Of a DNA stretch of 64,000 nt, positions 961 through 38,275 are shown piece by piece (the first letter of the stretch is position 1; the number at the start of each line of letters is the position of its first letter). The stretch spans positions 39,496,001 through 39,560,000 of the forward strand of contig OZ076409.1 of assembly GCA_964187785.1 (NCBI GenBank), read 5' to 3'. Position numbers and translations under genes: made by a program. The stretch comes from Amphiscolops sp. MND2022. Taxonomy: Eukaryota. The notes under the pieces are model-generated. The model ran no database searches. It saw nothing but the letters and a program-made list of their open reading frames with translations, and was not told the DNA's origin.

Positions 961-1390
961 TTATCATCTTAAATGTTTTTGGATCAAAATTAATTTAAAC
1001 TTTCGAGTGTACCTACGATTGCATCTTTTTCACGTTGGAATTGATTTCAGCTTCCAAGACCAAAGAAAAATTCCTCAGAAGGAATTTTCTTTTTCCAAAC
1101 TTGTCGATTAGCGAATGTGTCTGAAATCGATCTGCTGGCAGGAGCAAACATGAAGAAACGGGTTTTAACCACTTTTCTAGAATGGTAGATATCAAGTTTG
1201 TAGAAAACAAGTTTGACGAAGTAAGTCTGTAGAAAAGTGATTGTAAGTTTAGAGAAAAAAATCTACAAACTTACCTACCCTTAGTAAGTTTGTAGACTTC
1301 TACAAACTTGCTTTCTACAAAATTACTATACGCAAAAGTAGCTAAACTTGAAAAAATGGATGCACCTGGAAAGGTGCATGTGCTTGCACC

Positions 1391-3360
1391 TGTGGTAAGC
1401 GCGTAGATTCGGTTGGCTACCATTTTGGTAATCAAAGCGCTGCTCACTCCTATTGGTTTCTTAACCTTCTCACCATAAGTTTCTTCGGGGTATACTTCCG
1501 GTCTCTCGGACGGAAGGTTCCACCTATTCTGCGTCATTTGGCCCAATCCGGCATTCAGAACGGTTTGGATTCGTGGTAATATCTAATTACCGATCGCATC
1601 GCTAATCGCCTTTTGGATGTGGGTATTAACACCACTCATCATTTCGTCTAGTTCCCTAGACAACCTTGAATTTAGCTCACTTAACAGTTTATTGATCTCT
1701 GCACTGGACTTACCATCCAATGAATTTTGACCGTAATTGGTATTGATTTCGGGATTGATCTCCCTTGGATCTAACCGTCTGTTTTCACTATTTTTATCAA
1801 ACTCATCTCCGAGAGTACTTTCTTGTCTTCTGGCGCAATTACTATTGGGATCTCATCCCTTTCGTTTCTATTGAAGTTATTTTCTCCAAGCATAATGTCT
1901 AGGTTTTCTATATCTGAAAGTATTTCTTGTTCTCGAGACTTCCTAGCTCTCTTCTGTTTTCTAGTGGTAGGCATCAAAACAAAACCGGATTAAATATTGA
2001 ATTACTTAGAACCGGAAAACTAACAGAGAACTGTTTGTGAAGAAAAGGTTTCTTTAACGAAATATTGCAAGCAAAATTGTGTCCCTTTCAGGAGATGTAT
2101 GAGTATTTATACCCCCGAAAGAGTGACACTCACATTCCTTACATTTTTCGATTAAGAAAGTCATAACATGGTAGTGACCAAAACTGGTCACGTGATTATT
2201 CACGAGCAACATAAATAAATACTTCTGCCTTAGCGGCTATCCTGACAACTACATCAATGTATCAACTTGAACAAAATATTCTAACGATCAAACGCTAAAC
2301 ATTCCTGATTAATAGTTCATGACATCAACAATGTAACATTCCTGTACAGCTTAGCAACAAATGTTTGAGGTATGAGGCGTTGGCACGTGCCTACACAAGC
2401 ACGCTGATTCAACACCCAATTAATATCATTGCAAGCTGTATCACTTGATAAATAGTGCCCTTTTCGGCAATATGACAGATGGGGTCGGTAGGTGGACATA
2501 GGCTGAGCAGTCCCGAGCACTGGTGTTTATGGCGTCATAACTGGTTTATAGCAAATTGTGCTGGTCAATTTCGGGGGTCATATGAGTGTTTCCAATATAA
2601 ATGTAGACTTACATGACGTTTAAATTACATTAACACTTTCATCATAGTTTTTGGATAGTTAGTTCAAGAAATGGCCTGAACCGTCCACTTTCCAATTTAT
2701 CCATACCATGAAAGCACTAGTGTGTCAAATGGCCTTATTCGGCCAATTGATTAAATAAGGGGCAGCATCACAGAAGGGTACTTAACTAGCATAAAAGACA
2801 TAGCTAAGCCTGTATTGGTTAATTATATAAGCAGCTAGTGAAATATCTTTAATCTGTACAAGGCGGCCAGAAACGGCCATGTGACTGAAATGCCACTTAC
2901 GAAAAAAATTACGTCTTCTGGCCTTAACCGGCCGAGTAGTTACGATCGGTACAATATCACCAAACGAGCGAATATGATTGGCTAAAGTAACGAGCTCAAG
3001 TGACGTCTCCGGAATAGAAATTTCGCTCACTTAAAATCGTTTCCTTTACGCCGTATAGCTGTATTGTCAATTGCTTCAATTACATTAAGCATCATACTGC
3101 ACTACCAAATGCTGATACTTTTGAACGTTTAGCTTGAATCTTCTGACAGTGAGCTTAACAGACTAGTATTTGTGTATAAAAACAGGAAAAGAAGCAACAC
3201 CACTAAATACAAAAACATATGGGAAATGATAAGTTAATGTTAAAAGTTCAAGTTTTGATATTAACTTCCGGTTAGTAGATCGGAAGGGTGTCAGTTGCTG
3301 TCTCTTGTCCATATGTGGTTGTTGTGATCCTCGTCCCATTACAGGCGGCAGCCTGCAACA
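1391..3360 (-). repeat. 3' LTR of the Gypsy element (1970 bp)
   Basis: Aligns by eye with 15073-16722; plus strand starts TGTGGTAAGC and ends GCCTGCAACA. Confidence 0.9.
2104..2111 (-). promoter_or_regulatory. Candidate LTR TATA box (TATAAATA)
   Basis: Conserved in both LTRs (also 15591-15598), about 130 nt upstream of the LTR-internal gag ATG (1974). An E-box (GGTCACGTGA) lies further upstream in both copies. Confidence 0.5.
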
Positions 3361-4060
3361 CTGCGGGTGCCCGAAAAAGTAAGCTGCCGGCAATGAGCAC
3401 ATTCGAGTAGGCTTCTCTTCGAAGGGCTGTGATATAAGCCGGTTCACTTTTGGGAGTGGACCTTTCCATGTACCAATTTCTCTTCTCTTGTTTTATGTCT
3501 TCAAAGGACTTGCCGCACACTATACAACTTTGAAATCTTTGTTCGCTGAGATCCGCATACGGCAACACATCTTGTATGTGGAAAGAAGCATGAAAGTTGT
3601 CACTTACTGAATGATGCATCGGCGTGTCCAATACAGGTCCCTTTTCGTGTTCGGGCGGGGACGCTGGAGACTCTAGTACAGGAAGTAGGGTTTTAAACAG
3701 TTCGATTTTTGTCTTTTCTGTTTTCATGGGGGGAGCATAGCACATCTTTTCGTCGAAGTAACGAAAGTCCAACTTAGGGGTAGTGGGCGGCACGGGCTGT
3801 GCACTGCTAGGGCCAGCTTCGCATTCGTCTTCTATTCCCTCCGTGGTCATTATTTTGCCCCCAATTAGAATGGGGCTGGATCTAACTTCTCTTTCGATTG
3901 TCTCGATTAGCATCTCAGTATCTGTCGACCAATCTGAGTCCCATGAGCCAAACGTATCGTCTTCGCTGTCGCTGGATATGTAACTTACCGAGTCCGAAGA
4001 TTTTTCTGAACTTTGTTCTTCTAAGTCGAAGAGCTTTCTTGACAAGTTAAACTTTTGCAT
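3272..4060 (-). CDS. Accessory ORF-X of the Gypsy element (262 aa, unknown function; acidic N-terminus, CxxC)
   Basis: Open ATG-to-stop frame on the element's sense strand downstream of pol; last ~29 codons lie in the 3' LTR; no signal peptide or TM segment apparent. Confidence 0.6.
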   Translation of the reverse strand: MQKFNLSRKLFDLEEQSSEKSSDSVSYISSDSEDDTFGSWDSDWSTDTEMLIETIEREVRSSPILIGGKIMTTEGIEDECEAGPSSAQPVPPTTPKLDFRYFDEKMCYAPPMKTEKTKIELFKTLLPVLESPASPPEHEKGPVLDTPMHHSVSDNFHASFHIQDVLPYADLSEQRFQSCIVCGKSFEDIKQEKRNWYMERSTPKSEPAYITALRREAYSNVLIAGSLLFRAPAVLQAAACNGTRITTTTYGQETATDTLPIY

Positions 4061-5105
4061 TATGACTTTTTTCGCAATTTGCTGTATTCGGGAAACAACT
4101 AGTTTAAGTAAAATTCATAATGGGAATGAAGCTACCTACCTCTAGAATTCAGCCAAGTCAGGCCTTTTCGCGGCAATTCATTTTTGGCCGTTGAATCTTC
4201 GGTAAATCATCTTAATCCGACATAAACATTCCTGAATGGAATTCCTCAATAAGTCGGTGGTCTTTGATAATTCAATGATTACCCCCCATCAACACTATCA
4301 TCAGAAGAGGTGTGAATAACACATGTTATCAATAACAACTTCATCCATTTTAAGTGGGTATTTAACAAGTTGCTTTAGGGTAATTAACAGCATACACCGC
4401 TAACTTTCCTCAATATGAAATCAGGATCAAGCATTGATAGAGTCGAAAAACGTATAACAACTGGCGAAACATAATAATTCCAAAAAATCAAAATATTGCG
4501 AAAAATCTAACTAAGGATAATATGGGTAACGGAACAAAACAATAAAACGAACTAAGGAAAATGGCCGTAATTGGCCATTAACTAAGCAAGTTGTAAATAA
4601 TGAAGGTCTTTGTACATTTCGCTGGCAGACTCCATGTACAGCTTTAAATATGTAGATCATCATATAATATTAGTCTGATATTTTCTTCAGCTAAGAACTT
4701 CAACTTTCAATCTTCCTGATCATTTTCACAATTGTTACTTTTGTATTCTCCTCACATCCACATCTCCAATTACACTGCCCATTTATCACCTTTTCATCAT
4801 CATCATCACTGTTGATCCTCTCCACTTCGGAGTCTTCCTGGTCTTCTCCCTCCTTCTATCTCCGGCCTCGGTCAAATTCCCCCCAGCAATCGGCCTTACT
4901 AGGATCAACACTCAGCGGACCAATTCTCGAGCAGCATGTCTTCTGTCTGACTAAGGCTGGTTCGGATTTCCATTTTAGATCTAATTCAACTTGATCAGGA
5001 TTAAATTTTTGCAGTAGACACTTCCTGTTTCCATCACTAATCGCGTGATAACACGTTTCATTTGAAATTGTCAGACACTTCCGGAAGGTTTCTAATCGCG
5101 GTAAA

Positions 5106-8100
5106 ATGGATTCATATCAAGGAAGGACACTGCTAAAATTCATTCCCTTTCGTTTAGAGAATCTACTGAAAGAGGACGCTCCTGCACCAACCACTTCCCA
5201 AGTCAGCAATCCAGCCGTCGTCGAGAATTTGGCCGCAACATCAGAGGGACCACCTCAAGATTGAATCAGTATCCAAGTTCCTCAGCCCGAAGAGTTAGTG
5301 AACCAAGGCAGCCCAGCACTCAGCCAAGACAGTGACGCTGATGTTACTGCTTATGCTGAATCTGTAGTCCAACGGATGCAGCAGGTACAAACCCATACTG
5401 TACAAGACAGTGGTCATTCAGAATCTGTCCCGCCTCAAGGTCAAGAATCGGCCAATGTCCCACCAGAATTGATACCAGTCACACTTGAGAATCGTAGATC
5501 GAGCACTCCCATCCGGTCTGAGGAAGAAGAGAGACAGGAGGCAGATTTATCAGCTTTGGAATCTGCCCTGAAGATCATCATTTCCTCCGAAACCCAACTG
5601 CCTGAACTGAGGGACAGGGACAATTCGGGCCAAGCTGATGTAAGTGGCACTTAATCCAGAACCGACGAAGACAACGCCTCGTCAGTCTGTGATGTGCCGG
5701 CACTACCAGGAGGAACCCCCAAAGTACGGTTCACAGTGAGTTAAAATGAAGAGGAAGAGTCCACTGAAGAATCAAGTCGTCTCGTCCCGGTCGAATTGTA
5801 CGGGTATCCCACTTTTGCCCCTGAGTCTGGAACTGAAGGTGAAGATGAAACCAGTTACGAAAGGCGGCCCTAGGGACCCGATAAAGAACGTGCGACTAGT
5901 GGGAATCTAAACCAGGACGGCCTACCAGATCTCTCAGGCCGCAGTAGGGCTATTTTGAAGGAGTATTTCGAGGAAGCCTCTCCGATCAGACTCCTTATCG
6001 GGCACACTACCATCGCTTTTACTGAGCCTCAGATGTATCATCTTTTACGCATCCTCACAGATGAGACCCTTCGAAGATCTTTCACCACTATGGAAAGGGT
6101 GGTACTTGATGCTGTTCGCGGATCCACGACAGCCCTCCCATCTCGCACAGCTCATTTCCAACTCAGGAAACTCACAAACTCTAAGAGGCAGGGCCCTCAG
6201 TGAACCGGAGACCAATAGTGATAGGCCAGGGTCAGCTATGAACCAGCTGGGGTCAGGTACTGATGACACCGGTGGGTCATCTTTTTACGAAGAAAGTGAC
6301 AGTGCGACCGAGATGGACTTGATATCAAAGTCCTTCAAACGAACCCCTGCACTCCGCCTAGGTAGTGGGACCCAAGAGATGGTGACTACCACTCAGCCGC
6401 AGACAAGACTTGAAGCGGAAGGATCCAGCAGCCAAGACACCACTCTGCTCGAAATACGAGAGCAAGCCCAGAAAGGCTCGGGAGAAGGACCCTCCACTTC
6501 CGAAAAGAAAAAGGGCAAAAAGAGACTCACTAGGAGAGGTGTGCCCATAGGAGAAGAATTTTTTTCCAAAATAGGGTGGACAAGATCGTTCATCTCCGGC
6601 CCTGCAGATCCGCTACACAATCCTCATATGGTTTGGTGCCATATCTGCAAAACGAATTTCTCAATAAAGTCCAAAGGGCATAATGAGATCCTCAGGCACC
6701 ACCGGACAGATCGCCACTTGAGACGTGATCAAAGATGGCAATACGAACACCTGCGCAGCACAGATCCTGTTAGTGGCAAGGTGCAACATCGAGTCAGAGG
6801 CGCCAACGGCAAGATATTGACAAAGATTGAGCTGGCCAACCAACTGCCCAGGTTCATCAACGTTGAATTGGTGGACATAGGGGAAAGGTTCCCCTTTAAC
6901 GAAGATTTTAAAAGAGGAACCACCACAGCCTTAGTCACCCAAGAAGCACGGGTCAAGACTCAACTTTGCTTGGTAGGCGATTTTATAAAGACAATTGGAG
7001 ACAAGTCTGTCCTGAGGAACTTGTGGTCTAGGATGGGGGCCTACACCAATCATCAAGCGCCAGTTTGTGATTTCGACTTGGGTGAAGAGCGAATAACAGT
7101 AAGTGTCCTTTCGATGACCCGTTCCCAAACTTGAGTATTTCCTGTTCTAAATAGTCGTGTTTCTGTTTCAGGCCATATTCCAACATTTCTTCGTAAGCGC
7201 CCTGAGTGACATCGTTGAACAAATCACGACTCAGCAATGCTTCGCCATAAAGTTTGAGACTGCCGGTGTTTACCGTTACATGACCGTTACATGGGCAATG
7301 CGGAGCCCAGAACTCACTAAAGTAAGTACTTCAATCTGTCTTTCCTCCTAAGGGTCATGAGTCGGACGATTTGGGTGCACTACGGTATAGTAGATCAATG
7401 CGGCAATGGGCATTGCCCACACTGATGCACAAGTCTAAATACTCTGTCTTTGGCCAAATAGACTTCTTCTCAGTGCTCCAGGCTCTGATGGTCTCTCTAG
7501 GCGGATCTCTTGCCGAAGAATGGGCAATGCGGAGCCCAGAACTCACTAAAGTAAGTATTTCATTCTGTTTTTCCTCCTAAGGGTCATGAATCGGACGGTT
7601 TGGGTGCACTACGGTATAGTCTACAACATTGATCTTTGGGTTTTGCAGGCGATGACTAATTGCAAACTTGACGTCAGGACACTCCCAGCTCTCTGTACAG
7701 AGCTTGCCAAGGAATGGAAACCAATTCTCCGGTATTTGCCCGAACATGCCCCCATACAAGGACGTCAAGGGGTCCGAAGCAGGGTTAGACTTTATTTCGT
7801 TTCTCTAGTGATATAATTAATGATCCCGGTAAGAGTTTCTTGGCTCCCCTTATTTACTGAAAAACTGAAGAGCACTGACATGTGTGATCTGTTTAAGGTA
7901 CAGAACTTCGCATGATCCCTGATTTGTAACGAGTTTTTCGTCGTCAAGTTGGAGTTCTTCAACAGGCTCGTGAGTGATTGTAAGTACTTCACTTTTAGGT
8001 AATAGCCCAAGGGTTTTATTCCACTTTAGGCATTTATTTGTGTTTCGAGGCGTGGCTAGTTTCCCTGTGAATCTCCAGCACAGACGTGACGTCTCCTTTT

Positions 8101-9271
8101 ACCTTTGTGGTGAAGTCTGCCAGTTCATAAGCCTGCTCTTTTCCCGTATTTACACTTCTGATTTGGCTCCTCTCGCTAACGCCTGGTTTTTGCTATTACG
8201 CTTCCAGACGAGTGAGGACACGTTCCTGGCCGGAGAGGAATATTTGTTGCGCCTGAAGCTCACCAACAAAGTGTCGGCAGCCGGCAAAGCGAAAGCCGAG
8301 GGAATGCACTTTGGTAAGAAAGCAGAGCGCCCAGCGATCCTGGCGACCACAGAGACTGTGAAAGCTGATTTCATCAAAGACAACCAACAGTATGTCCAGT
8401 ACTTTATCAACGAAGTACTTCGTCACACTGGACTCACTACAAACATCAAGAAAGGGATGGCTACCTTCGTTCTTTCATCTTGTTCAAGCGCCCTTTGGAC
8501 GTGGCTCTGCGCCACTTTGACATATTGTACAGCACCTTCTCCCTCTGTTCGTGGGTTGCTAGTGCCAATGAGTCCTTGTGCCGGGATCAATACATGCAAC
8601 TGCTTGACCACCTATGTACAGCCTATGGCACTGGTTTTGATATAACTAGTGTCTCTGGTGATTTAATTGAGTTTTTGTTCGAGCTGGATTTCCTCCGAGA
8701 CCGTAGCTGTTTGTTTTACCTCTTCAAGTTGTGCTGCTTGTGTGCTACTTCTGTCAGTCCAACGTATCCCGACGTCACTTTCGGGATAGTTTCCACCGCC
8801 GGACGTCAGAGTAGATTGAGCGACGTCATTCTTCCCGGTCAGAGTTACATGGCCAACGTGCGAGACTCAGTGGCTTCCTGCAGTGATGATGGCAACCTTG
8901 CTAAGTTCGTCGACCTAGCTTCTTTTTTTGGGCGATCTGTATTTGCTCCTGATTACGATCCTTGGACCTACGTGGACACTTTTGGACGCTCAAAAATCTA
9001 TAAGTCGTTGTTGGCTTCTTATCGTGTAGCGCTTTCCACCCCTCAAAATGTTCCGACCCGAACGGCACCTGGAAATACAATTTCTGTGGCCGATGCGTCT
9101 GCCGTGATGCGTCTACTTGCAAACTGTAAACTTTTGTTAATTTCTTGTTATATTTATTGTTTTCGTTCGTTCTCAACTCCTGTATTTATTCATCTTGGAA
9201 GGGGTTTTTCGGCAGTCCCACCATTGTTCAAAGATACTATCCTGAGACTAGTAGAAAAAAAGAAAGGATAA
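5106..9271 (+). pseudogene. Antisense multi-exon cargo gene in the Gypsy element: acidic/disordered N-terminus, BED/TTF-like zinc finger, possibly hAT-transposase-derived body
   Basis: ATG 5106 is in frame with ORFs 5298 and 5955; frameshift into ORF 6061-7134 (WCHIC...HHRTDRH); phase-0 GT-AG introns 7099-7171 and 7551-7648; acceptor at 8207 with CTAAC branch point; ORFs 7974-8645 and 8480-9271 continue by frameshift. Confidence 0.65.
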
Positions 9272-9329
9272 AAGAAAAGAAAAGAATATCCTGAGCTCTT
9301 CTCTGGGCCGAATTTAGCCTTTTCTAGTA

Positions 9330-10735
9330 TCTAAAGTCTTCTGAGTAGTTTGGGTTACGGTTCAGGCCTGAGGTTGTATCGCCCACCTCTAGGACTCAGA
9401 TTTTCATTTTTATCATCCTTCTGCGATATTTCGGGCACGATAATATCATCCCCTCTTTTTGGAGACTTTTGTGCATCATTTTTATTAGCAAAGCTTCCTT
9501 CTGAAAATTTTGCATCTTTTCCCTGTCTTTCAGACAAGTCCGGCAAAGATTTTTCTGGACTTTTGTGGTAAACGGCCGAATCCGGCCAATCAGAGTTTTC
9601 ATTTGTAGTTGCTTCAGTAGTTTCATTTGTATTGTTGACGTCACTTTCAATTCTTTTATCTCGGCTGTGCGCTGCATCGTTGACGTCATTCGGACAATCA
9701 GTCGTGAATGTAATACGCTTCATTCTCGTTTGCGTCACTTGTGTTCGCCTCTGTCGTAGTTGGCCGTTCGCCATTCGGCAAGCTAGTCGGAATAGGCTCA
9801 TTGCCGCGTGTAGCGAGCTGTTCACCGAAGTTCGTTTCCCACGTTGTTGTGCTAATGTCGTCTTGCGGAATAACAATTTCTTCGTCTTGTTGCAATCGCT
9901 CTTCTCTGAAATTGTCCTGAAGCGGTTGATTGGGAGCAAACTTTTTAAGGCGAATGCGATGTAAATTTTGAGTTTTGTTTGTATTGAGTCTTCGGACTAT
10001 GTAATTCTCATTGGGAAGTACCTTTTGGATAATAAATGGTCCAACCCAACGGTAATCTCCAAAAAGAATTTTTGATCCTTGGTGGTCCGCTTTCGGCTGC
10101 AATACAAAGCAGTAGTCGCGTTCTTTGAGTGGAGCGGCTTTCGCTTTTCTATCATAATACTCCTTGTATTTGATGTATGACTGCATGATATTCTGCTTTG
10201 TTTTGTCGATGAGGAGTTTTGTCCGGTTCTGGACTTCTTCAGCAAATTCAGTTGTGGGAGTGATCTGGTCATTTGGATTATTTCTAAGTTTGTGATCCAA
10301 GATATTGTATGGAACTCGTCCAAGGAATACTCTTGTTGGTTCACAACCAATGCTTGCATGACAGCTCGTATTGTGATTGAGAACTGCTAATGGCAAGTAT
10401 TCATGCCATTGACGGCGATATTCAACACATGCCATTGTAAGGTTTGTCTTCAATGAGGCATGGGTACGCTCTAATTTCCCACTTGTTTGCGGGTGTTTTG
10501 TGTTTGCGCATTTGAGAGTAATTCTCAAAATTGGCGTAATCTCCGCAATAACCGTAGATGTGAATGCAGTTCCTTTATCCGTATTGAGCGTCGTTGGTAA
10601 GTACGTATGTTTTTTCATAATGTCAAGGAGTACTTTTGCTACATGATCGCTGAGGCATCCGTGAGAGGATAGGCGAACAAGTATCGAGAAAAGACATCTA
10701 TCGCAGTTACCACATTTTCATATCCTCCGCTTGTT
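9330..10735 (-). pseudogene. Gypsy integrase core, GPF/Y region and disordered C-terminal tail
   Basis: AIDVFSRYLFAYP, TDKGTAFTS, HPQTSGKLERTH, RWVGPFII; tail ends RYNLRP. HHCC zinc finger missing, with an apparent deletion near 10730. Confidence 0.9.
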
Positions 10736-10929
10736 ACAGCAGGTTCGTCTGTGGCGGGATTTTTCCTGATTGCTTCCTTCCTTGCCCAGTATTGTTTTTC
10801 AGTCTCATCGTCATCGTTTGTGTAGAAGATTTGTTCTTCCTGTGAGACTCCTGCTGACTGGACATTCATTTCGATCGGTAAAGTTTGTACATTTTCTCGG
10901 GTTTTCATGACTAATTTGTCTTTGGGGTC

Positions 10930-11580
10930 TGCTTCAAGGCGGGACAAATAAACTGCTGCCGTGTTTTGTGCCCCTGGGATGTGTGCTATGACAATATTGA
11001 ATTAGATGACATAATCACATGCGTTCCACAGGGCTGGAGGTACAATTTTTGAAAGAATCTAGTTACGGCTTTGTTGTAGGTGAGGATATTGACCGGTTTC
11101 GGCGCGCCCCAGAAAACTTGCCCAATTTCTTTGAATGCAAAGTAAGTTGCAAGAAATTCTTTTGCGTAGATTGACATCTTTATTTGGGTTCGGTTAAATG
11201 TTTTTGAGCCGTATGCAACCGGCGCATAGGATTTGCGGATTGAGGTGAATTTTTGACTTGGGTCATCTCTATGAGTAATGCATATCCAGCAGCACCAAAG
11301 CTTGCAAATGTCATCAGTGCGATTTGTTTGTTTGGAATTAGTTAATGGAGGGCTAAGTCGCAGCATTCTTCTAGTGCTCGATTGATTTCTTCAAATTGTT
11401 GAACCAATTCTTTCAATACTTGGACTTTTTTGTCACTTTTCAGCATCTTGTAAAATGGAGCAAGGCGTTCGGAGAGTCTTGGGACATAATTTTGGTAAAA
11501 GTACAGGAAACCCAAGTATCTCTGTAAAGCTTCTTTCGACTTTGGAAATTTGGTTTTTTCAAGGAAGTTCTGGACATTCT
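10930..11580 (-). pseudogene. Gypsy RT connection/RNase H region
   Basis: PVAYGSKTF...YAKEFLA...WGAPKPV motifs; frameshifted. Confidence 0.85.
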
Positions 11581-11581
11581 G

Positions 11582-12286
11582 CTATTGAGGTTTGACGCCT
11601 TGTGAGGTTATTGTTCTGCCGAGGAAGTCAATTTCTGTGGCACCAAAGTGGCATTTGTGCATTGTCAATTTAAGGCCTGTTTCCCGAATGCAATTCAAGG
11701 TTGCTCTCAGGTTAGCGATGAGGTGATCAGCGCCATTGGCTGCGATGCCGATATCGTCTACGTACAGGGCACACTGGTTCGTTTTCATGACTTTATCAAG
11801 GTATTCTCGCATGAAACTGGAAAATGCGGACAGTGCCCGGCTAAGGCCTTGTGCTAATCGACTGTAGGCAAATGTGTGGCTTGCAAAATTGAAGGCTAAC
11901 ATTTCAATGGAACGTTGATCAGCCACCTGAAGGCACTGATACGCTTGTGAACAGTCTAACTTGCAGAAAATTTTTTTGCCCACCATGTGCTGGGCGGCAT
12001 CGACTAGGGTACTGACAGGGTGATTACTATTGATATAATCATCTGAGATTAGGTTGTTGATTTTTCTCAAGTCAACCAAAAGTCGCAGTTTCCCATTGGG
12101 TTTTTTCTGTGCAAATATTGGACTAGCGTATTTCGAGAATGGTAGCGTGGTAATTATTCCATATCTATGTAACATGGCTAGTTCGACAATGATGTCTTCC
12201 TTGAGGTTTATTGGTGCCGGAAGACTCTGACTATAGGCTGGGGAATCGTCCTTAGGTGTCAATTTCACCTTGAATTCCTCATTCAT
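11582..12286 (-). pseudogene. Gypsy reverse transcriptase
   Basis: SKYASPIF, KLRLLVDLRKIN, KLDCSQAY, LAQGL, YVDDI, FLGRTI. Confidence 0.95.
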
Positions 12287-12289
12287 GCC

Positions 12290-13330
12290 TATATCAAATC
12301 TATGTCTAGCGAATCTTGGAATTCCACGAGGAGTTTTTCAATTTTTGTTCTTTCGTTTCAGTTAAGGTGGAATCTTTCCAATCGAATTTTGTTCTGGATA
12401 CTTCATCTCTTGTCGGGTCGAGAGTCTCCAGGTCTTGTAGGGCCTGTAGTTCCCATAGTGTTCGTTTCTGGATGGGTGTGTCTTCCGCCGGGTTGCCCGG
12501 GTCCTCCGGAGTTGGGAACCAATAATTTTCTGTAGTCTGTGACTTTTTATTGGTCTTGATGAGACTGCTGACATAGTGGGCCGCTCTTGGTCATTTTGTA
12601 GGAGGTGCCAGTTCGATGCCGGATCTATTGGTTTGACAAACTTCATTTGTTTTGGCGTCATAAGGGGAAACTGGCGATATAGAGCCCCTTCTTGAGTTTG
12701 TAGGGGTGATCTGTGAAGTTATTCCCAGGAATCGACACATTGCCATCATTCAGGGTGACCAGGGCTGGGCAAAAGGTAATGCCTCCTTCTTCATGTTGAT
12801 GGTCGCTCGGTTGCAAAATCCCAGTTACTTTATTCTCAGGGTAGGGCAAGGAATTGGTCCAAATTAGGACTCTGTCGTTTGGCGGAATGCTCATTTCATT
12901 AGGATTGAGAATCGGTTCTAGTACGTTGGAGTATTTGTGATCCGCTGTTTTAAGCTGCATCGAAAAGAACGGGAAATTCAGTATTCTTTGTCTCATGTCC
13001 AGCACTGTATGGTTTCGTTGGGGGAACATTAGTCCAATAATCGGTCCTGTCAAATTTTTCATTACAATGAAGATTTCATGGAACTCTATATCACCAACTT
13101 CAAATTAGAGCTCTATAGTACCCTTGGGAGTCTCTAGTTGCCCATTTGCGACCATGATTTGGAAATTTGGAGGAGGACCTTCTCGAATGACAGATTGTGG
13201 CGAAAAAAGTAGAGTTTTCCGGAGGTCCATTTCTGGGCTGGCACTGAATAGTGCCCCAGTATCAATTAGTCCATCTATGGTCAATTCCCCAAAGTCCATT
13301 GTGAAATAGAGCATGCGTTTTTTGCATTTA
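12290..13330 (-). pseudogene. Gypsy aspartic protease and PR-RT spacer domain
   Basis: GLIDTGA active site, IIGL motif, then a ~150-aa spacer before RT; frameshifted. Confidence 0.85.
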
Positions 13331-14039
13331 AGGCTAATGTTGGTTGACAGGGGTATACAGTCTGGCTCACCTTCTTTGGTGATGAGTACATTTTAGAATT
13401 GTGTTTCATCTAGTAGGGATTGTGAAATTGATTCAGAAGTGTTTTCAATATTCTCAGTCCCCAAAGGGTTTGGAAACACGGGATGGTTGGTACCATCGTT
13501 CATTTGCAAATTCCCAATGAGTGCTCTCGTTTTTTTGTTGTGGGTAATTGGAGGATTCTCGTGGACTGTTTTGTTGTAATGGTCGATGTCATCTACGACA
13601 TATTGGAATTGCAATAGGTCCTGGTTATAGATCTCGGTATCCAGTAGGGATTTCTACTATAGTCTGGGTCGATGAATGTTGGGTTGTAATTGTCTATCAA
13701 AGGAATGGGCCTGAAGCGGGTAGTAAATGCAGCTGTGTAATCAAGATCCCAAACAGGAATTGGTTTTTGGAACAAGTGGGTGTTATTATAGGTAATAATG
13801 GTAGCTTTTTCCATCTGCTGCTGTCAGACAACAGAGGGATAGCCCATCAGTTGTTGTTCATAATCATGGAATGCCTTTGTTGGAGGATCCGACCTGATGC
13901 ATTGTCGGACTGATACCAGTTGGTTATATTGGAGTCGTGGCGAAGCTAGTTTTTTGAATCATCATTTTTGGATGAGGGTTGGGAGTTGGATGATGTTGGC
14001 TTGGGATAAGGTTTTGGAGCTTGGAGTCCGGTTTGGTAT

Positions 14040-15550
14040 CACTGGGTCTTCTGATCTGGTACGTTTGGGTTTGAGGTGTGCACCTGCACCTTGCCAACAC
14101 CTTTCCTCGGGATGGTTTTTCGTACCACAAGTTCCACACTCAGGATAAGTTTTTTTCTGGGTTGATTTGCCTTGTTGGGCATCTTTTTTTTCTTTTTGAG
14201 TTTTTCACAGTCTTTGACCATATGACCCTTTTCCTTGCATTAGTTGCAAGTAATGTCACTCATCTGTACATTGGAAGAAATAGTTTTGGGATTGGTGACT
14301 GAAGATGTCATTGACGCCATTGGTAGGACGTCAGATTCTTCAAGTGCATTTAACTCAAGCTCTCTTTCAAGATGAGCGACAATTTCGTCGTAGGAGCCGT
14401 TTTCCAGTCTGGCCATGTTGACTGATCTTTTCAACTTCGGCTGCAGTTTTGCGTATAGGAGGCTGTCAATCATCTTTTGGGCGTTGTCTCCAAACGCCTT
14501 TTCTGCGCCTTGGTTGAGTTCTTCAGGAAAATCTGGTAGTTTTGTCGTGTTTGGGTCAAATACTAGACGGTGCCATTTGTGTTTGGCAGATGCCTGTGAT
14601 TAAGGCTTGACATATTTTCGTCTGAATATGATTAGTACGTCCTCAAGAGTTTGTCGGTTAGCTGTGCTGATTTTGCGGAATGTTTGTAGGGCTTTTTTCC
14701 GCAAGAGGGAATGAAAATGATTAATTTTCGTCTGCTCAGACATCTCAGGCTACATCTTGATCATCGTGTGGAACAGATCCTCGAACAGTTCGAATTTCTC
14801 ACTTTTACCGTCGAAAGTCATAGTGTTTGAGTTGACTGGGCGGATAGTGAGCTGTTGGGCTGTTGGACGATTCTGCATGTTTGTCAAGACGTCAGCTAGC
14901 CTGTTGATGGGGTCTTGTTCTGGAGCCGGAACGGTCCTTTCTTGTGTTGGGATCGTCTTGTCAAGGAGGGGGTGGAAGTCATCATGGGAACTGTGAAGAT
15001 GATTTCTAGATGGCATTTGTCACGTGAGAAACTCAGGAGCTTCGATTGTAGATTCGTTGTCTCCTGTCACCAAGGCGTGAGCGCGTAGATTCGGTTGGCT
15101 ACCATTTTGGTAATCAAAGCGATGCTCACTCCTGTTGGTTTTCTTAACCTTCCCGCCATATGTTTCTTCGGGGTATACTTCCGGTCTCTCGGACGGAACG
15201 TTCCACCTATTCTGCGTCATTTGGCACGATCCGGCATTCAGAACGGTTTGGATTTGTGGTAATATCTGATTACCGATTGCATCACTAATCGCCTTTTGGA
15301 TCTGGGTATTAACACTACTCATCATTTCGTCTAGTTCCCTAGACAACTTTGAATTTAGCTCACTTGACAGTTTATTGGTCTCTGCACTGGAATTATTTTC
15401 CGATGATATTTGACCGTAATTGGTAATTGATCTCCCTTGGATCTAACCTTCTGTTTTCACTATTAACATCAAACTCATCTCCGGAAGTACTTTCTTGTCT
15501 TCTGGCGCAATTACTATTGGAATCTCATCCCTTTCATTTCTATTGAAGTT
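14040..15550 (-). pseudogene. Gypsy gag (starts within the LTR)
   Basis: TFDGKSEKFELFEDLF capsid-like motif; two decayed CCHC knuckles at ~14090-14245; N-terminal part lies in the LTR. Confidence 0.85.
15061..15072 (-). promoter_or_regulatory. Primer binding site TGGTGACAGGAG (tRNA-Leu-like)
   Basis: Begins immediately after the 5' LTR end with TGG (complement of tRNA CCA); the tRNA identity is inferred. Confidence 0.75.
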
Positions 15551-16722
15551 ATTTTCAGAGGTTTATTGAAGTTTTTTTGAGGGGTATGGGTATTTATACC
15601 CCTGAAAGTGTGACACTCACATTCCTTACATTTTTCGATCAAGAAAGTCATAACATGGTAGTGACCTTAACTGGTCACGTGATTAATCACGAGCGACATC
15701 AATAAATATTCTGCATTAGCGGCTATCTTGACAATCACATCAAAGTATCAACTTGAACAAAATATTCTAACGATCAAACGCCAAACATTCCTGATTAATA
15801 GTTCATGACATCAACAATTTAACATTCCTGTACAGCTTAGCAATAAATATTTGAGGTATGAGGCGTTGGCACGTGCCTACACAAGCACGCTGATTCAACA
15901 CCCAAATAATATCATTGCATGCTGTATCACTTGATAAATAGTGCCCTATTCGGCTATATGACAGATGGGGTCGGTAGGTGAACATAGGCTGAGCAGTCCC
16001 GATAGTATTTGGATAATTAGTTCAAGAAATGGCCTGAACCGTCCACTTTCCAATTTGTCCGTACCATAAAAGCACTAGTGTGTCAAATGACCTTATTCGG
16101 CCAATTGATTAAATAAGAGGCAGCACCACAAGAAGGTACTTAATTAGCATAAAAGACATATCTAAGCCTGTATTGGTTGATTATATAAGCAGCTAGTGAA
16201 ATACTTTTAATCTGCACAAGGTGGCCAGAAACAGCCATTTGATTGAAATGCCAATTATGAAAAATAAAAATACGTCATATGGCCTTAACCGGCCGAGTAG
16301 TTAGGATCGGTACAATATCACCAAAGGAGCGAATATGATTGGCTAGAGTAACGAGCTCAAGTGACGTCTCTGGAATAGAAGTTTCGCTCACTTGAACTCG
16401 TTTCCTTTACGCCGTATAGCTGTATCGTCAATTGCTTCAATTACATTAAGCAACATACTGCACTACCAAATTCTGATACTTTTGAACGTTTAGCTTGAAT
16501 CTTCTGATTGTGAGCTTTATCAGACTAGTAATTGTGTATAAAAATAGGAAAATAAGCAACACCATCAAATACAAAAACATATGGGAAATGATAAGTTGAT
16601 GTTAAAAGTTCAAGTTTTGATATTAACTTCCGGTTAGTTTATTGGAAGGGTGCCAGTTGCTGTCTCTTGTCCATATGTGGTTGTTGTGATCCTGGTCCCG
16701 TCACAGGCAGAAGCCTGCGACA
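15073..16722 (-). repeat. 5' LTR of the Gypsy element (1650 bp, two internal deletions)
   Basis: Matches 1391-3360 but lacks segments equivalent to ~1882-2090 and ~2515-2648. Confidence 0.9.
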
Positions 16723-16859
16723 GCACCCTTAGCAACTGTCGCAACAAAACAAACGTGAAAAAAACCTGCAGGGTGACGTTTCTGGTGTTTCTTGGAGCAC
16801 TAAAGCACTTCTAAGACTACTACTATTGATAGTTCTCTGCTTTAGCAGGCTATTTGTTC

Positions 16860-17200: not shown

Positions 17201-17328
17201 TATTGAGTTTGACGTTTTGTTGGTGAACTTTTTCGAATGTGTTGCATTTTTTCCGTGTTTAGGTAGAAAGGGAGTAACATTGATGTATCGACGATTAAAA
17301 ACCAAGTGTCAATGTTGAAAATTTTTAT

Positions 17329-17366
17329 TGTAATCGTTTTCGCAGTTCAACTGCGCCATCAGACAT
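17329..17366 (-). ncRNA. Degenerate hammerhead ribozyme motif of the Penelope 3' end
   Basis: CTGATGG-C-GCAG-TTGAA-CTGC-GAAA; core mutated relative to the copy at 19359. Confidence 0.5.
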
Positions 17367-17725
17367 CTAGAAATAGATCAAATAAAACAACTAAATAAGC
17401 AAAAAAGCATCGTGAAAGTCAGAATAAAGGCCTAAAGATTTAAAAACGTCAAATCTTTAGTGTCAGTTGACGCTGTCTGAACTCGTCGCGTTGATTTAAG
17501 GCGGGATTAAGTCAATCGATGTGTAGAGCTTCCAAAGTGAGAAGTTTCGATGCAATCCGTGTTCTGTCCAATAACTTGGCTGTTGGAAAAGAAACATTTG
17601 CATTTTTCAAGATGTTGTGAAACAGGTGCACTGGACCGCTGGTGCTCATGCAGTCGTGTCGTAAGATGTCGCACTGTTTGGCCAACATAGCTGGAGTCAC
17701 ATCCAGGACATTTTATGCAATAGAC

Positions 17726-18282
17726 AGTAAATGGTCACTTGGCTTAATGCCATTTGGCTTAAAGTCATTTGGCGTAATACAATTGGTCACTTGGCTTAAT
17801 TTTTTTGAGCTAAGTGACTCGGGTATCGGTCACTTGGCTTAAAGTCATTTGACTTAAAACCACTTAGTTGAAAACACGTGGCAGATTCTGTCGAATTTAT
17901 CCTTATAACGTAGTCAGCGTATTAATATAACATGTCATATCAAGTACCCCTCGGATATGTCCCCAATTCCTCTACTGCCATGCGGCCCCTTGGGGCCGCT
18001 TATATTCCCATCTTGCTAAGCGAGGTTGAACAGGAGCAAAGATCTAGCGGGAACGAAGATCGTGAAGCGATCGTGGTGGAAGCTGGTCCTTGCGACGGTG
18101 AGGGCAAGCGTGCATACACCGCATATGCCCCACATTATGATATTTCCGGCAGATGACATATTCATTCCTTGAACTGGAATAGAGTTGGCTTAATTTTGTG
18201 GTCACTTGGCCTAAAATTTTCAAGCCAAATGACTCCACGAGAAAATTAAGCCAAATGGTAATAAGCCAAGTGACTGGTAACC
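17726..18282. mobile_element. MITE with 8-bp TSD, nested in the Penelope-like element
   Basis: CAATAGAC at 17718-17725 and 18283-18290; inverted ends containing GTCACTTGGCTTA / TAAGCCAAGTGAC; internal TTGGCTTAA repeats. Confidence 0.8.
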
Positions 18283-18481
18283 CAATAGACGACACAACTA
18301 CAGAGATCGCCAGTAGTCTGCGATTTTAGCGACGGCAACAAAGACGTTAATATTCTTGTGCACAGTCGTAGGTTCCAAACAGCCATTAGTCGGTACTCGG
18401 AATCGTAGAAACTTCGGAATAATATCATTTTCAGCGCAACTCATCAGGAACTTCATGCTCGCTTTGTTGTTGCGTGAAGGC

Positions 18482-18922
18482 ACGGTAATAAGTTCGAACG
18501 CATAAGTTCGAATTTTAGTTTCGAATGGACTAAGTTCGAATTTTCCAAAAACCGGAACAAGTTCGAATCACTGTGTTCGAATTTTGAACAAACCGCCGTA
18601 AGTATAAAACGTATCTCTATGTTCCCATCTTGCTAAGCGAGGTCGAACAGGATCAAAGACCTATCGGGAACGGATATCGGGAAGCGATCGTAGTGGGAGC
18701 TGGTCTTTGTGACGGTGAGGGCAAGCTTGCGTGCATTTTGCCCCACATTAGAAAGGAAAAGTATTGAAAATTTTCTGAGTCATTTACGAAAGGTAATAAT
18801 TTATTCTTGACACACCGGATTTGCCCGATATGAAAATTCGATTTTGGTGTCTCGAAACTATTCCTATTCGAACTTATTCCACTAATTCACATTCGAACTT
18901 AGTAAATCGAACTTATTGCCCG
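18482..18922. mobile_element. MITE with AAGTTCGAA subterminal repeats
   Basis: Ends CGGTAATAAGTTCGA / TCGAACTTATTGCCCG; AAGTTCGAA repeated on the left and TTCGAACTT on the right; TSD unclear. Confidence 0.65.
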
Positions 18923-18984
18923 GAGCCGTTGCGTGTTTTCACTAGCGAATCACGGTGTTTTAGAAACAACTGCTATTTCCCAAG

Positions 18985-19406
18985 TGCAAGTAGTTATATT
19001 GTCTATTGCATAAAATGTCCTGGTTGTGACTCCAGCAATGTTGGCCAAACAGTGCGACATCTTACGACACGACTGCATGAGCACCAGCGATCCAGTGCAC
19101 CTGTTTCACAACATCTTGAAAAATGTGCTCCAAATGTTACTTCTCCAACAGCCAAGATATTGGACAGAACACGGAATGCATCGAAGCTTCTCACTTTGGA
19201 ATACATCGACCGACTTAGTCCCGCCTTAAAACAACCCGACGAGTTCAGACTGCGTCAACTGACACTAAAGATTTGACGTTTCTATCTCTATATGCCTTTA
19301 TTCTGATTTTCACGATGCTTTTTTGCTTATTTAGTTGTTTTATTTGATCTATTTTCAGATGTCTGATGATGCAGTTGAACTGCGAAAACATTTACAATAA
19401 AAATTT
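18985..19406 (+). mobile_element. Penelope-like element 3' fragment (GIY-YIG endonuclease plus 3' UTR)
   Basis: IVYCIKCPGCDSSNVGQTVRHLTTRLHEH...LLTLE...PAL; stop at 19276. Confidence 0.88.
19359..19396 (+). ncRNA. Minimal hammerhead ribozyme motif
   Basis: ATGT-CTGATGA-T-GCAG(TTGAA)CTGC-GAAA-ACATTT-ACA: conserved core and perfect 4-bp stem II in the Penelope 3' region. Confidence 0.7.
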
Positions 19407-20426: not shown

Positions 20427-23325
20427 ATGTCCCGGAGAGGAATCAATAAGTTCTGCTCCGCCCAAAAATGTTGTAAACCCTCTGGCAGAATTTTCTGGGT
20501 AGGATGTTCAAAATGCCGTAAATGGTTCCATATCAAGTGTGTGGGTATCCAAAAAAGCAGTCGGAGGAGGAAGATTTTTTCTGCAGACCTTGTCAAGTTG
20601 TGGATACGGGTGCTCCACTGCCGCTTACTGTTGATACTCTAATAGCTGTCACTAAAGCAAACCCCACCATTCTGAAACGAGTACCCAAACACGCACGCAT
20701 TCCATTAGCGAAGCTTCTCAATGAAGCGCTTGATGGCATAGTAGCAAAGCCACACGATGTATCGTGCTGGGTGAGTTTCTTTCTTCAATTTTGCGCTATT
20801 ATGAAACCGCCAAAACGATCTGGCAAACGACAGAAATCTGATCTGGGGAGTATCATATTCGAGAGAATCAACAAAGGTGCAGCTCTTGGCGATCTTGTCG
20901 TCCCGCGTGAAATGAAGGACTCTAAACTCGAGCAAGAATGCGAAAAAAGGATCAAGTTGATCTCCGCCAAGCTCGATGAGGGGAACGTCCGAGCGGGAAT
21001 AAGACTAGCAGCGTCTGACGACTCAGTAGCTCCCTTTGACAACAACACTTACGAAAAACTTCAGTCGAAACATCCCCCTCGAGCCCCAAATCATGCCCAA
21101 CAAAATGTCGAAGATAGCCTATTTACGTTTGAACCCATCGTAGCGAAGGCAATCAACTCCTTCCCTTCTGGGTCTTCGGGAGGACCAAGCCTACTTGTGC
21201 CCCAGTTGTACAAAGACCTTATCGCGAAGAGCAACGGGTCCGTAGGCAACGAGTTTCTTCAGAAGCTAACAAGCGTACTGAATATTGTCTTGGAAGGCAA
21301 AGGCCCTGTAGGTTTGAGACTTTTTTCTTTGGTGCTAAACTTATCGGTCTTCGGAAAAAAGACGGCGGAATTCGACCAAATGCTGTTGCAAATACCCTGC
21401 GTCGAATATGCTCGAAATGTGTGAGCTCTTTCGCGACTGACCAACGACGAATTGATTTCCATGGTACGCAGTTCGGCTGCGGAACAAGTCGTGGAGCTGA
21501 AATCGCAGCACATGTTTTTCGAAACCTCATTGAGAACGAGCAGAATCCTGAAAACGTTATTCTGAAGATGGACTTCAAAAATGCCTTTAACTCGCTGAAA
21601 CGTGACAAAAGCTTAGACACCGTTTTTCGAAAACGACGGCAGATTTACAATTATACGCACTCTGCATATAGCGAATCCTCACATCTTTTCTTCGGAGAGA
21701 AAGTTATTCAATTGCAAGAGGGCTGTCAGCAAGGGGACCCCGAAGGCCCAGCTCTCTTCTCCGGCACTATTCAAGACCTCGTTAACCAAATCGTTTCACA
21801 ATATAATGTTTGATACCTCGACGACGGAAACCTTTCGGATGACTATCGGACGGTTCTTGAGGACCTCAAACGAATCATCGCTAGCGCCGACGAGTATGGG
21901 TTATAACTCGAGAAAACTAAATGTTACCTGATTTTCCTCGGAAACTGTACCGAAAGTTCAAAAAAAAGAATCAAAGCGCTTTTTGACGAAAGTTGCGCGG
22001 GTATTAAAGTGGAGGATCGTGAGAATTTGGAAAATTTAGGGTCGCCAATGGGAGCAAGTGCTCGACGAGACCTGTTGAACAAAAAATGATTGAATTGCAA
22101 AAACTATCTGAAGTCGTTACGAAATTAGATGCCCACTATGAATTCTACTTGTTGAAGAACTGCTTTAGTCTACCTAAACTACTATACTTTCTTCGTACCA
22201 GCCCTTGCTTTGAAGAGGTGGACCTCCTACAGCAGTATGATTCCATTATCCGCAAATCATTGTCCAAAATCTGCAATGTGAATATTGATGAAAGCAGCTA
22301 TACTCAAGCGATTCTCCCAGTCTCCAAAGGGGGCATAGGCATTGCATCGGCTTCCCAGATTGCTCTTCCTGCTTTTTTAGCTTCAGCATCGGGTGCCAAA
22401 CGTGCTTTGTCGTGTATCCTCCCGTGTATCCTCCCCATCAAGACTATGTTGATGCATCGTTTGAAAAGGCTCTGGATTTATGGTTGGCGAGGGCGAACCT
22501 GACAGAAGCACCGTCGGACTCCATCCAAAAACATTGGACCTCTCCTCTGAGCGATGCTACTTTTGAGCAACTTATTACAGACCTTGATGCGGAAAATGTC
22601 AAAAGGCTGAATGCTTATCAAGACCCCTTTGGTTCAGCTTGGCTGAATGTTGTACCAAGCAAAAATCTCGGTCTGAAGTTGACAGATCAGCAACTGCGCA
22701 TCTCCTTATCCCTCCGCCTGGGTTCGAAATTTGCGAGAAACACACTTGCGCTGCGGTAAACTTGTCGAAGAGAACGGACATCATGGTCTTTCCTGTGCCA
22801 GAAGCGCGGGACGTTTCTCGAGGCACCACAACCTCAATACTCTCGTGAAACAGGCGCTGAGTTCCATCAGAGTTCCCTCAATTTTGGAACCATATGGTCT
22901 GACCCGAACAGATGGAAAGCGCCCAGATGGAATTTCTCTGGCGCCCTGGGAGGATGGCAAGCAATTAGTCTGGGATGTTACTTGTGTCGATCTTCTCGCC
23001 CCCAGTAGAATAGAGAACGGGTCTGTTGCCAACCCAGGCACAGCAGCGGAGGATGCAGAGGAATTGAAAACGGCTAAGTACGTTTGTTTGACTGACAAAG
23101 GATACATCTTCCAACCCTTAGCCTTTGAAATTCAGGGAGGACTCGGACCTTCCACGTCTACCTTCCTGAAAAACCTCTGTAAAAAATTGTGCGTGTGCAA
23201 TCAAGAAATTAGAGCCGGGTCCTTTTTCAGGCGGAGACTCTCTCGCAATCCAGGTAGGCAATGCGGCCAGTGTAGTTGGAACGGTTCGGGACGGTGGGGT
23301 ATTTTTGGATCGAATTTTTGTGTGA
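20427..23325 (+). mobile_element. CRE-clade non-LTR retrotransposon ORF (PHD finger - RT - CCHC - restriction-like endonuclease), frameshifted
   Basis: PHD (C-C...WVGCSKCRKWFHIKC...FFCRPC); SSGGPS, QFGCG, MDFKNAFNS, GCQQGDP, YLDDG (~21815); CG...HGLSC, RH, RPDG, WDV; C-terminal AIQVGNA, stop at 23325. Confidence 0.9.
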
Positions 23326-23446
23326 GCGAAAAGCGAGACCGAAAATGGATCGAAGGTTTTGAGATCGAATTTTTCCGGTTTTGCTAGGTTTTTGCTCCTG
23401 TAAAGTGTTTAAAAGCGTTTAAAATTATTTAGGTAGTTTTCCCCAC

Positions 23447-35479: not shown

Positions 35480-35963
35480 ATGAGAGCGAGTCAGGAATTC
35501 CTGATGAGACCTCTTACACTCCTGCTTTTGTTGTCTCTCCAAATGAATGGAGCCGCCGCACCATTTGGCAACAACCCAGCCACCAACAACTCAATTCTGA
35601 TCGGAGAAAAGGGCCCTGGCAAAACAGAGTATCGTTTGGGAGTTCTAGCCCCTGGCTTCTTACGTCATGAAAACGATTTTTCAGGATTGAATCTAAATGC
35701 CACCATTGTTGCCCTTCAAATGTCGATTGAAAAATGGCAACCGAAGATATTACCAGACTTCTATTTCAAATTAATCTATCAAGACACTGAGTGTGACTTC
35801 CAGAAGCACAGCATGTCTCCTGTTTACCTCTACTCCGATTCCCACGTCCATGCATTCTTCGGTCCCATGTGTGTCACCATTGTCAGCTGGACAACTCAGG
35901 TCGCCAAACTTAACGATCTCCCTGTCATGACTGTTGGCTCGCCCAGCAAAGCCAACATAAAAG
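35480..35963 (+). CDS. Receptor guanylyl cyclase (NPR/GC-type), coding exon 1: signal peptide and start of the ANF-receptor domain
   Basis: Hydrophobic signal LTLLLLLSL; YQDTEC, HAFFGPMC motifs; phase-1 donor AAG|GTGAGA. Confidence 0.88.
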
Positions 35964-36494: not shown

Positions 36495-36622
36495 ATTGAC
36501 CATACCACTAAGCTAGGGATGAAGGACTTGCTTAAGGACCAACAATGGTGAGTTGAGAGAGATTCGAACCTGATACCGCCCCAGTACAGGCCGAATGCTC
36601 TAACCACTACGCCATGCTCCCC
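36495..36622 (-). mobile_element. tRNA-derived SINE with CORE-like segment
   Basis: A box TGGCGTAGTGG and B box GGTTCGAATC, followed by CCTTAAGCAAGTCCTT. Confidence 0.7.
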
Positions 36623-38268: not shown

Positions 38269-38275
38269 GTTATAG

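Follow-up and report, generated by a model that had tools for sequence, protein, structure and literature searches.

What does a retrotransposon gain from a gene on the strand opposite to its own genes, and where does such a gene come from? The question is raised by a 64,000-nt stretch of the Amphiscolops sp. MND2022 genome (assembly GCA_964187785.1, contig OZ076409.1, positions 39,496,001–39,560,000, forward strand), here called the window. It contains an old Ty3/Gypsy element on the minus strand (1391–16722), with a 5-bp target duplication at both ends. Past pol, which ends at 9355, and before the 3' long terminal repeat (LTR), the element carries two extra genes placed head to head: a plus-strand gene, antisense to gag and pol, and a sense gene, here called ORF3. 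An earlier note, made from the sequence alone, had described a spliced antisense gene with a zinc finger inside an LTR retrotransposon, and the position between integrase and the 3' LTR, opposite to gag-pol, agrees with it. The antisense gene is fixed in this Gypsy family and is under purifying selection. Its protein is very probably derived from a hAT transposase of the hAT5/Blackjack lineage, as judged from sequence comparison.

The antisense gene consists of five exons and four introns (Table 1). In L035, a natural unbroken copy, the five exons, each checked singly, join into an open frame of 3855 nt, which corresponds to 1284 codons plus the stop. Introns 1 and 2 and the donors at 7784 and 7980 are those predicted in the earlier note. 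Over all four introns, the eight GT and AG splice dinucleotides are kept in 52–55 of 56 copies. As a control, 53 GT or AG dinucleotides inside the introns were followed across the copies; 52 of them are kept in 9–77% of copies, and the remaining one, which lies in a pyrimidine tract, is kept in 96%. The lengths of the introns drift (69–87, 95–117, 110–126, and 66–76 nt), while those of exons 3 and 4 are fixed. The splice map of the earlier note needs revision at two acceptors. The acceptor at 7897, which pairs with the donor at 7784, had been missed, and the acceptor proposed at 8207 is out of frame with the donor at 7980, leads to 34 stops, and has its AG inside a Gln codon. The 52 codons upstream of 8207 are themselves coding, with a ratio of nonsynonymous to synonymous differences (pN/pS) of 0.12. 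The correct acceptor is at 8049, where AG is seen in 54 of 56 copies and in all 16 diverged copies. Another candidate at 8029 was rejected, as only 2 of 16 diverged copies contain AG there. Position 8207 is in frame with the donor at 7784, and a minor form that skips an exon is conceivable.

The copy in the window is broken, as had been noticed from its stops and frameshifts. Exon 1 contains four stops and a frameshift, and exon 5 contains a frameshift. Exon 2 is only 379 nt long, and 7291–7391 duplicates 7520–7620. The proposed start of the gene, ATG at 5106, is right; the proposed end at 9271 is not natural, since the 3' end of the gene is deleted near 9106. Among 40 near copies, four are intact, with all exons open and eight canonical splice sites.

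The introns can be lost precisely. The sample used here contains 18 distant copies, ten of which were chosen for their membership in loss groups, and the fractions are therefore not frequencies. Intron 4 is missing in 13 of the 18 copies, and 5 of those 13 also lack intron 2. The losses fall exactly at the predicted joints, including the codon split by intron 4. The five copies lacking both introns are 97–100% identical and are located in five separate places, and their sisters (87% identical) retain intron 2 at the site of its loss. On trees with midpoint roots and no outgroup, the groups with losses are nested inside a set of lineages that keep the introns, with support of 98/89 on exon 5 for the loss of intron 4. 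Loss rather than gain is thus the simpler reading. Exact intron loss implies a spliced RNA intermediate, and these losses indicate that a spliced antisense RNA existed in the past.

Selection on the gene was estimated over ten subfamily representatives. The pN/pS values are 0.24, 0.11, 0.22, 0.21, and 0.12–0.17 for exons 1 to 5, with upper 95% limits of 0.14–0.52, and 0.43–1.05 for the introns in three frames. The constraint on exons and the laxity of introns are what the earlier note expected from a comparison across copies. Constraint is limited to the plus frame and its mirror frame; it is stronger in the plus frame, and the mirror frame contains 41 stops over four exons. The region around the zinc finger is the most constrained. 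From the finger on, the dN/dS of exon 1 is 0.03, and the Cys and His residues of the finger are kept in 60–62 of 62 copies. Sister copies that split after insertion show near-neutral dN/dS (0.58–0.91). Selection acting on the lineage that replicates would produce this combination of near-neutral sisters and constrained lineages.

Presence of the gene was counted independently of the gene itself. Of 150 listed elements, 20 were chosen solely for the similarity of their integrase; exon 5 is present in antisense in all 20, being 52–72% identical to the reference, compared with 93–98% for integrase. Conversely, at loci picked by the antisense gene, pol lies downstream on the opposite strand in 69 of 71, and the other two are tandem duplications. 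Such duplications inside single elements (L014/L015 and L056) include the antisense gene, or its last exon and the end of pol. A first look at the 1.07-Gb genome with two of the exons yielded 7183 and 8012 candidates, which are not copy numbers; 125 and 150 of them were scored, and every one matched. Of the copies retrieved, 39 are near, 16 middle, and 16 distant. These counts and the low pN/pS of all exons support what the earlier note had supposed, that the element retains the gene under selection, and the gene is almost certainly functional. That it is a functionless fossil of a nested transposon, as the broken state of the window copy and of most others might suggest, is scarcely credible: purifying selection between lineages is strong, near-neutral change is confined to post-insertion sisters, the gene is fixed in 20 of 20 elements, and the codon pattern refutes such a fossil.

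The gene family may not be confined to this genome. A profile search with E-values up to 0.001 found 472 relatives among cluster representatives, and the 150 listed are each at most 418 aa long. One of them shows 29–31% identity to its best scored match in the Amphiscolops genome, which suggests that the family occurs in other genomes. A metagenome match (L203) was discarded, since it falls off-frame in a bacterial gene and is due to chance.

The origin of the protein is indicated by its finger and its C-terminal half. The finger, W-C-x2-C-x16-H-x5-H, starts at 6634, as described in the earlier note. A short pattern built on two known motifs led to a decayed transposase in the same genome, and ten relatives of this transposase carry a finger, two Asp motifs, CxxH, RW, and a C-terminal Glu motif. 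When the family of exons 4 and 5 is aligned with these ten transposases by hhalign, the probability is 96% and the E-value is 3.3e-9 over 191 columns; a repeat of the comparison gave 95% and E-values up to 2e-8. The score of 67 is far above shuffled and reversed controls (shuffled maximum 23). The score of the finger is 36–38 against shuffled maxima of 20–22, and the spacing of the donor finger, C-x2-C-x16-H-x5-H, is identical. Over its exons, the protein is apparently collinear with the donor transposase, the finger preceding the helical C-terminal half in both.

Two genomic copies of the donor group (profile E-value 1e-118) have CAGGG ends and 5-bp duplications. A more distant family is represented by three copies with CAGGG ends and 8-bp duplications, and from these ends we take it to be Blackjack-like. 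The ends, together with duplications of 5 or 8 bp, identify the donor group as hAT. hAT5 generates 5-bp duplications (PMC12730594, PMC9004415) and has been placed inside the lineage containing Blackjack (PMC12730594). The alignment of the donors with Ac-type hATs is weak but collinear. Thus, the hAT origin supposed in the earlier note is upheld. Its idea of a captured DNA-binding gene stands as to the capture and understates what was captured: the protein is apparently a whole transposase with an added acidic N-terminus, not a mere finger. The same genome also contains young hAT families (L165–L168, L170, and L172) that end in CAGGG, have duplications of 8 or 5 bp, and are detected by no Pfam hAT model.

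Domain databases recognize little of this. Pfam gave no match for the exon peptides up to an E-value of 10, and 50 relatives gave only three weak unrelated rows. The finger had been called BED/TTF-like, and this label is not supported; Pfam zf-BED (PF02892) does not match the protein, and one donor protein (E-value 9e-4) scores too low for the cut-off, while the finger matches that of the donor family. No match was obtained in a search for DUF4371 or, up to an E-value of 10, for PF04195, the TRP28 domain of Retand. Sequence searches of the PDB with the protein and searches for longer homologues of exon 5 were blank. In the ESM Atlas, exon 5 leads to Dimer_Tnp_hAT clusters at 0.90–0.91, in which the domain is assigned to 53–68% of members with low recognition, and this is a lead only; exon 2 has no usable match there. 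Two predicted folds, from shallow alignments, are of low confidence (pLDDT 36 and 45). The model of exon 2 (pLDDT 45) shows the order helix, three strands, helix, with a weak profile match, and neither Foldseek nor VIA-align returned anything usable for it.

The columns suggest what was lost and gained since the capture. At the position of the first Asp, the copies contain Glu, Ala, or Val, with no conserved acid, and at that of the second, Ser or Thr, with an acid in none of 60 copies. RW is lost, and the position of the Glu has no conserved acid. By column counts, the hallmarks of active hATs (the DDE triad, CxxH, and RW) are thus absent, with the register in exons 2 and 3 being at the level of motifs. 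Short motifs of terminal inverted repeats are both found around the gene in one of 55 copies, and the gene is always inside an LTR element. The transposase is predicted from these alignments, with good confidence, to be catalytically dead. On the other hand, exon 1 adds about 470 residues that the donors do not have, 18–19% acidic and 23–24% Ser/Thr in two stretches. This extension has a conserved start motif, a conserved island of about 70 residues, and a run of Lys before the finger, which is predicted to be a nuclear localization signal. It is very improbable that the protein is an active transposase by which the element also moves in a cut-and-paste manner. The transposase body is apparently of full length, and hAT5 makes 5-bp duplications as well (PMC12730594, PMC9004415), but the DDE positions are lost, the gene has no terminal repeats around it, and the elements end in TG..CA LTRs that reach 99% identity and conserve reverse transcriptase (RT) and integrase.

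We favor the reading that the protein is a nuclear DNA-binding regulator, which would activate the element's own promoters or shield them from silencing, and put its probability at a little under one half (about 0.48). The finger is the strictest part, catalysis is lost, and an acidic tail is gained, so the protein has the build of a transcription factor; if its target were the element's own promoters, selection on the element would be accounted for. Activation of cognate elements by transposases, and loss of DDE residues on domestication, have been described (bioRxiv 10.64898/2026.08.24.746577). The following scenario can be considered. A hAT transposase gene would have entered an ancestral element backwards, and in this orientation its introns would not be spliced from the genomic RNA. 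After the capture, the terminal repeats and the DDE residues would have disappeared, and the acidic low-complexity N-terminus with its basic run would have been added. Transcribed from the spacer common with ORF3, it would produce a protein whose finger binds a motif in the LTR or the spacer and whose acidic part recruits host factors. Introns might be lost when the spliced antisense mRNA, which has the polarity of minus-strand DNA, serves as a template, for example by a switch during plus-strand synthesis. The full account, a whole transposase domesticated by a retrotransposon as a spliced antisense transcription factor, exchanged as a cassette, and relieved of introns through its own antisense mRNA, is tentative.

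Several results weigh against this account. Exons 2 and 3 alone give E-values of only 0.07–0.4 with the donor, and 1 of 40 and 2 of 40 shuffles score as high; the best local match of exon 2 covers the first two strands in the expected order and is not significant. The Ac-type transposases and one Tip100-like hAT transposase of the genome gave no match with HMMER or hhalign, and Pfam finds no hAT domain in the donor family itself. Two of the catalytic positions depend on a register at the motif level. Exon 2 is strongly constrained and has its own invariant Glu, Arg, Asp, and His, which a new protein-binding, RNA-binding, or enzymatic role would explain as well. The binding site in the LTR or spacer is putative. 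The motif GGCC shows a five-fold enrichment in near LTRs but does not occur in three distant ones, and for that reason it was rejected as a general binding site. Finally, the types of LTR are uncoupled from the alleles of the antisense gene, with proteins 60–76% identical where LTRs are 90–95% identical. This argues against a tight lock-and-key of the VANC type.

The alleles have a history of their own. In several pairs of elements, the synonymous difference is 0.02–0.22 in pol and 0.75–0.89 in the antisense gene, and therefore old alleles were exchanged between near-identical pol backbones. Such swapping is also expected in a conflict, and so is divergence far faster than that of pol (29–75% against 74–98% identity). 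These facts could indicate counter-defence, in which the dead transposase would serve as a decoy or blocker of a host factor for silencing or restriction, or would poison hATs that compete with the element, and the element's own promoter would not be regulated. hAT5 and Blackjack-like elements do coexist in the genome. However, the finger is the most constrained part, and pN/pS exceeds 1 in no exon, as far as estimates at the exon level rather than the site level can tell. We regard counter-defence as rather unlikely.

The flanks of 35 insertions bear on a role in integration, in which the protein would tether or import the pre-integration complex and pick targets. A DNA-binding finger with a basic run would suit such a helper, and dispersed repeats that the window contains as well are touched by 7 of the 35 flanks, in two cases at the junction. 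Nevertheless, the 35 flanks share no common target; four pairs are alike, and these are in dispersed repeats (some LTR ends are approximate). Integrase is also nearly invariant, while its supposed partner would vary widely. Tight targeting, one of the roles offered in the earlier note, is thus without support in these flanks, and an integration helper is unlikely; the other two roles offered there, transactivation and anti-silencing, are plausible. A loose chromatin preference is compatible with the flank counts, which have no background rate.

The protein or the antisense RNA could instead dampen the element and spare the host. Repression is common among domesticated hAT proteins. Transcripts that run toward pol in antisense could cause interference or form double-stranded RNA (PMC7264820). 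The constraint at the protein level in all exons, however, excludes a role of the RNA alone, the family has thousands of candidate copies, and the acidic extension would suit activation better. Self-limitation is accordingly quite improbable compared with the preferred regulator of the element's own promoters.

Antisense genes are not new in LTR elements. In plants, elements of the Retand/Tat group carry antisense open reading frames (ORFs), such as gene23 of Grande, that of RIRE2, and TRP28 (PF04195) of Retand; nearly every copy has its ORF, placed between pol and the 3' LTR (PMC7264820, PMC11963269). They have their own promoter, and their products are nuclear or predicted to bind DNA (PMC7264820, PMC11963269). 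The gene in Amphiscolops shares their position and near-universal presence, and it fits aORF-3R, the class of antisense extra ORFs placed in this way. It differs in having four introns, 1284 codons, and no match to TRP28. The plant ORFs have no similarity to other transposons, and a nested origin was set aside for that reason (PMC7264820, PMC11963269), whereas the origin of the gene described here traces to a hAT lineage. With the transposases of hAT5 and Blackjack it shares the spacing of the finger and a helical C-terminal half, arranged alike; in contrast to them it has no terminal repeats or DDE, has an N-terminal extension of about 470 aa, and moves inside an LTR element.

Among DNA transposons, TnpA of Spm and VANC of VANDAL are likewise accessory DNA-binding proteins encoded by the element, a property that is predicted here. 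TnpA is derived from a transposase and activates cognate copies (bioRxiv 10.64898/2026.08.24.746577). TnpA and VANC serve DNA transposons of their own class, while here the relation would be across classes, and activation is suggested by analogy; in the main text of that preprint the word retrotransposon does not occur. The host-domesticated FAR1, MUSTANG, and CGGBP1 resemble the antisense gene in having a transposase body under purifying selection with the catalytic residues lost. ZBED genes are also transposases domesticated by hosts. Host domestication concerns one copy and a host as domesticator; here the domesticator is another mobile element, with thousands of candidate copies. The HBZ gene of HTLV-1 (human T-cell leukemia virus type 1) is spliced and encodes a small basic leucine zipper (bZIP) protein. 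Its antisense-encoded product regulates a retrovirus from within the nucleus (cited in PMC11963269), a trait in common with the proposed reading, and is not derived from a transposase. LTR elements of bdelloid rotifers carry captured ORF3s that are env-, DEDDy-, or GDSL-like (PMC5408684); they are also captured extra ORFs in animal LTR elements and are not derived from transposases.

No LTR element with a spliced antisense gene derived from hAT was found in the literature searched, outside of which lie Repbase, Dfam, and most subscription papers, and such an element may have been annotated without being published. Where antisense extra genes of LTR elements come from and what they do are stated open questions, and one of the plant papers calls for a search for spliced antisense transcripts (PMC7264820 or PMC11963269). 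The case of Amphiscolops offers a traceable hAT origin, evidence of splicing within the genome, and a defined DNA-binding domain. It would extend transposase domestication from hosts to other mobile elements, and the gene may help explain the rise of the family to thousands of copies. Because no Pfam model sees the protein, such elements are prone to mis-annotation.

Table 1. Coordinates of the Ty3/Gypsy element and its antisense gene in the window.
Feature	Position	Strand	Remarks
Target-site duplication GCACC, left copy	1386..1390	.	Identical 5 bases at 16723–16727
3' LTR, ~1.97 kb	1391..3360	-	Direct repeat of 5' LTR, 91–94% identity in three blocks
ORF3, second extra gene, sense to gag-pol	3272..4114	-	280 aa in the window, extends into 3' LTR
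AT-rich spacer between ORF3 and antisense-gene starts	4115..5105	.	Conserved non-coding blocks among 17 copies
Exon 1	5106..7098	+	ATG 5106; ~470-aa acidic Ser/Thr-rich extension, finger from 6634, start of transposase body
Intron 1, phase 0	7099..7171	+	GT in 52/56, AG in 54/56 copies
Exon 2, predicted degenerate RNase-H-like core	7172..7550	+	486 nt in 40/56 copies; rearranged in the window copy
Intron 2, phase 0	7551..7648	+	GT in 55/56, AG in 55/56; precisely lost in one natural lineage
Exon 3, 135 nt	7649..7783	+	135 nt in 52/56 copies
Intron 3, phase 0	7784..7897	+	GT in 55/56, AG in 53/56
Exon 4, 82 nt	7898..7979	+	82 nt in 53/56 copies; one stop in the window copy
Intron 4, phase 1	7980..8049	+	GT in 54/56, AG in 54/56; precisely lost in a natural clade
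Exon 5, helical domain and C-terminal region of transposase	8050..9120, end approximate	+	hhalign to donor family
pol, fragmented	9355..13392	-	Pfam RVT_1, RT_RNaseH, rve, Integrase_p58_C; 1738-aa open frame in relatives
pol domain, integrase	9698..11001	-	Gypsy order
pol domain, RNase H	10986..11390	-	Gypsy order
pol domain, RT	11582..12337	-	Gypsy order
gag, fragmented, bounds approximate	13900..15442	-	Frame start inside 5' LTR; weak Pfam zf-CCHC; 579-aa frame in relatives
Primer-binding-site-like stretch starting TGG	15055..15072	-	Adjoins 5' LTR; read from sequence
5' LTR	15073..16722	-	Direct repeat pairing with 3' LTR

The element itself is a regular member of Ty3/Gypsy. On the minus strand, gag is followed by RT, RNase H, and integrase, as judged by Pfam; the TG..CA LTRs are 91–99% identical, a primer-binding-site-like stretch is present, and the 5-bp duplication is seen in the window copy and one relative. 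At the position of the polypurine tract, six distant copies are G-rich, and in the near group this place is taken by a stretch of pyrimidines that ends in CAG (3361–3390 in the window). The gag frame opens about 600 nt within the LTR and runs through the primer-binding site (15020–15442 in the window; copies L066 and L035). About 550 nt of the pol of relatives is absent from the window copy at 10733. Between the pol stop and the end of the antisense gene (9150–9190), 15 of the 16 copies inspected have AATAAA on the sense strand of the element. It might give rise to a shortened gag-pol mRNA that does not overlap the antisense RNA.

ORF3 is about 260–360 aa across the family, with an acidic N-terminal half, an H..CxxC motif, and a conserved C-terminus that reads into the 3' LTR. 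It has no match in Pfam. It is present in 13 of 16 distant elements and tracks the type of LTR, not the allele of the antisense gene. The spacer between the two gene starts is a candidate internal promoter. Among 17 copies, its conservation peaks at 4611–4711 and 5020–5100. The former block, about 100 nt and non-coding, is conserved above the surrounding coding DNA, and two short motifs are kept even in the subfamilies that are most distant; it is a candidate for a promoter, a binding site, or an RNA element. Rfam gave no family at the gathering score for the spacer, with three weak chance rows only.

Elsewhere in the window, a ~2-kb element with long inverted ends lies at 17319–19406, and a decayed RT-bearing element at 20522–23387. 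Exons of a host receptor gene with ANF_receptor and protein-kinase domains occupy 35324–41577.

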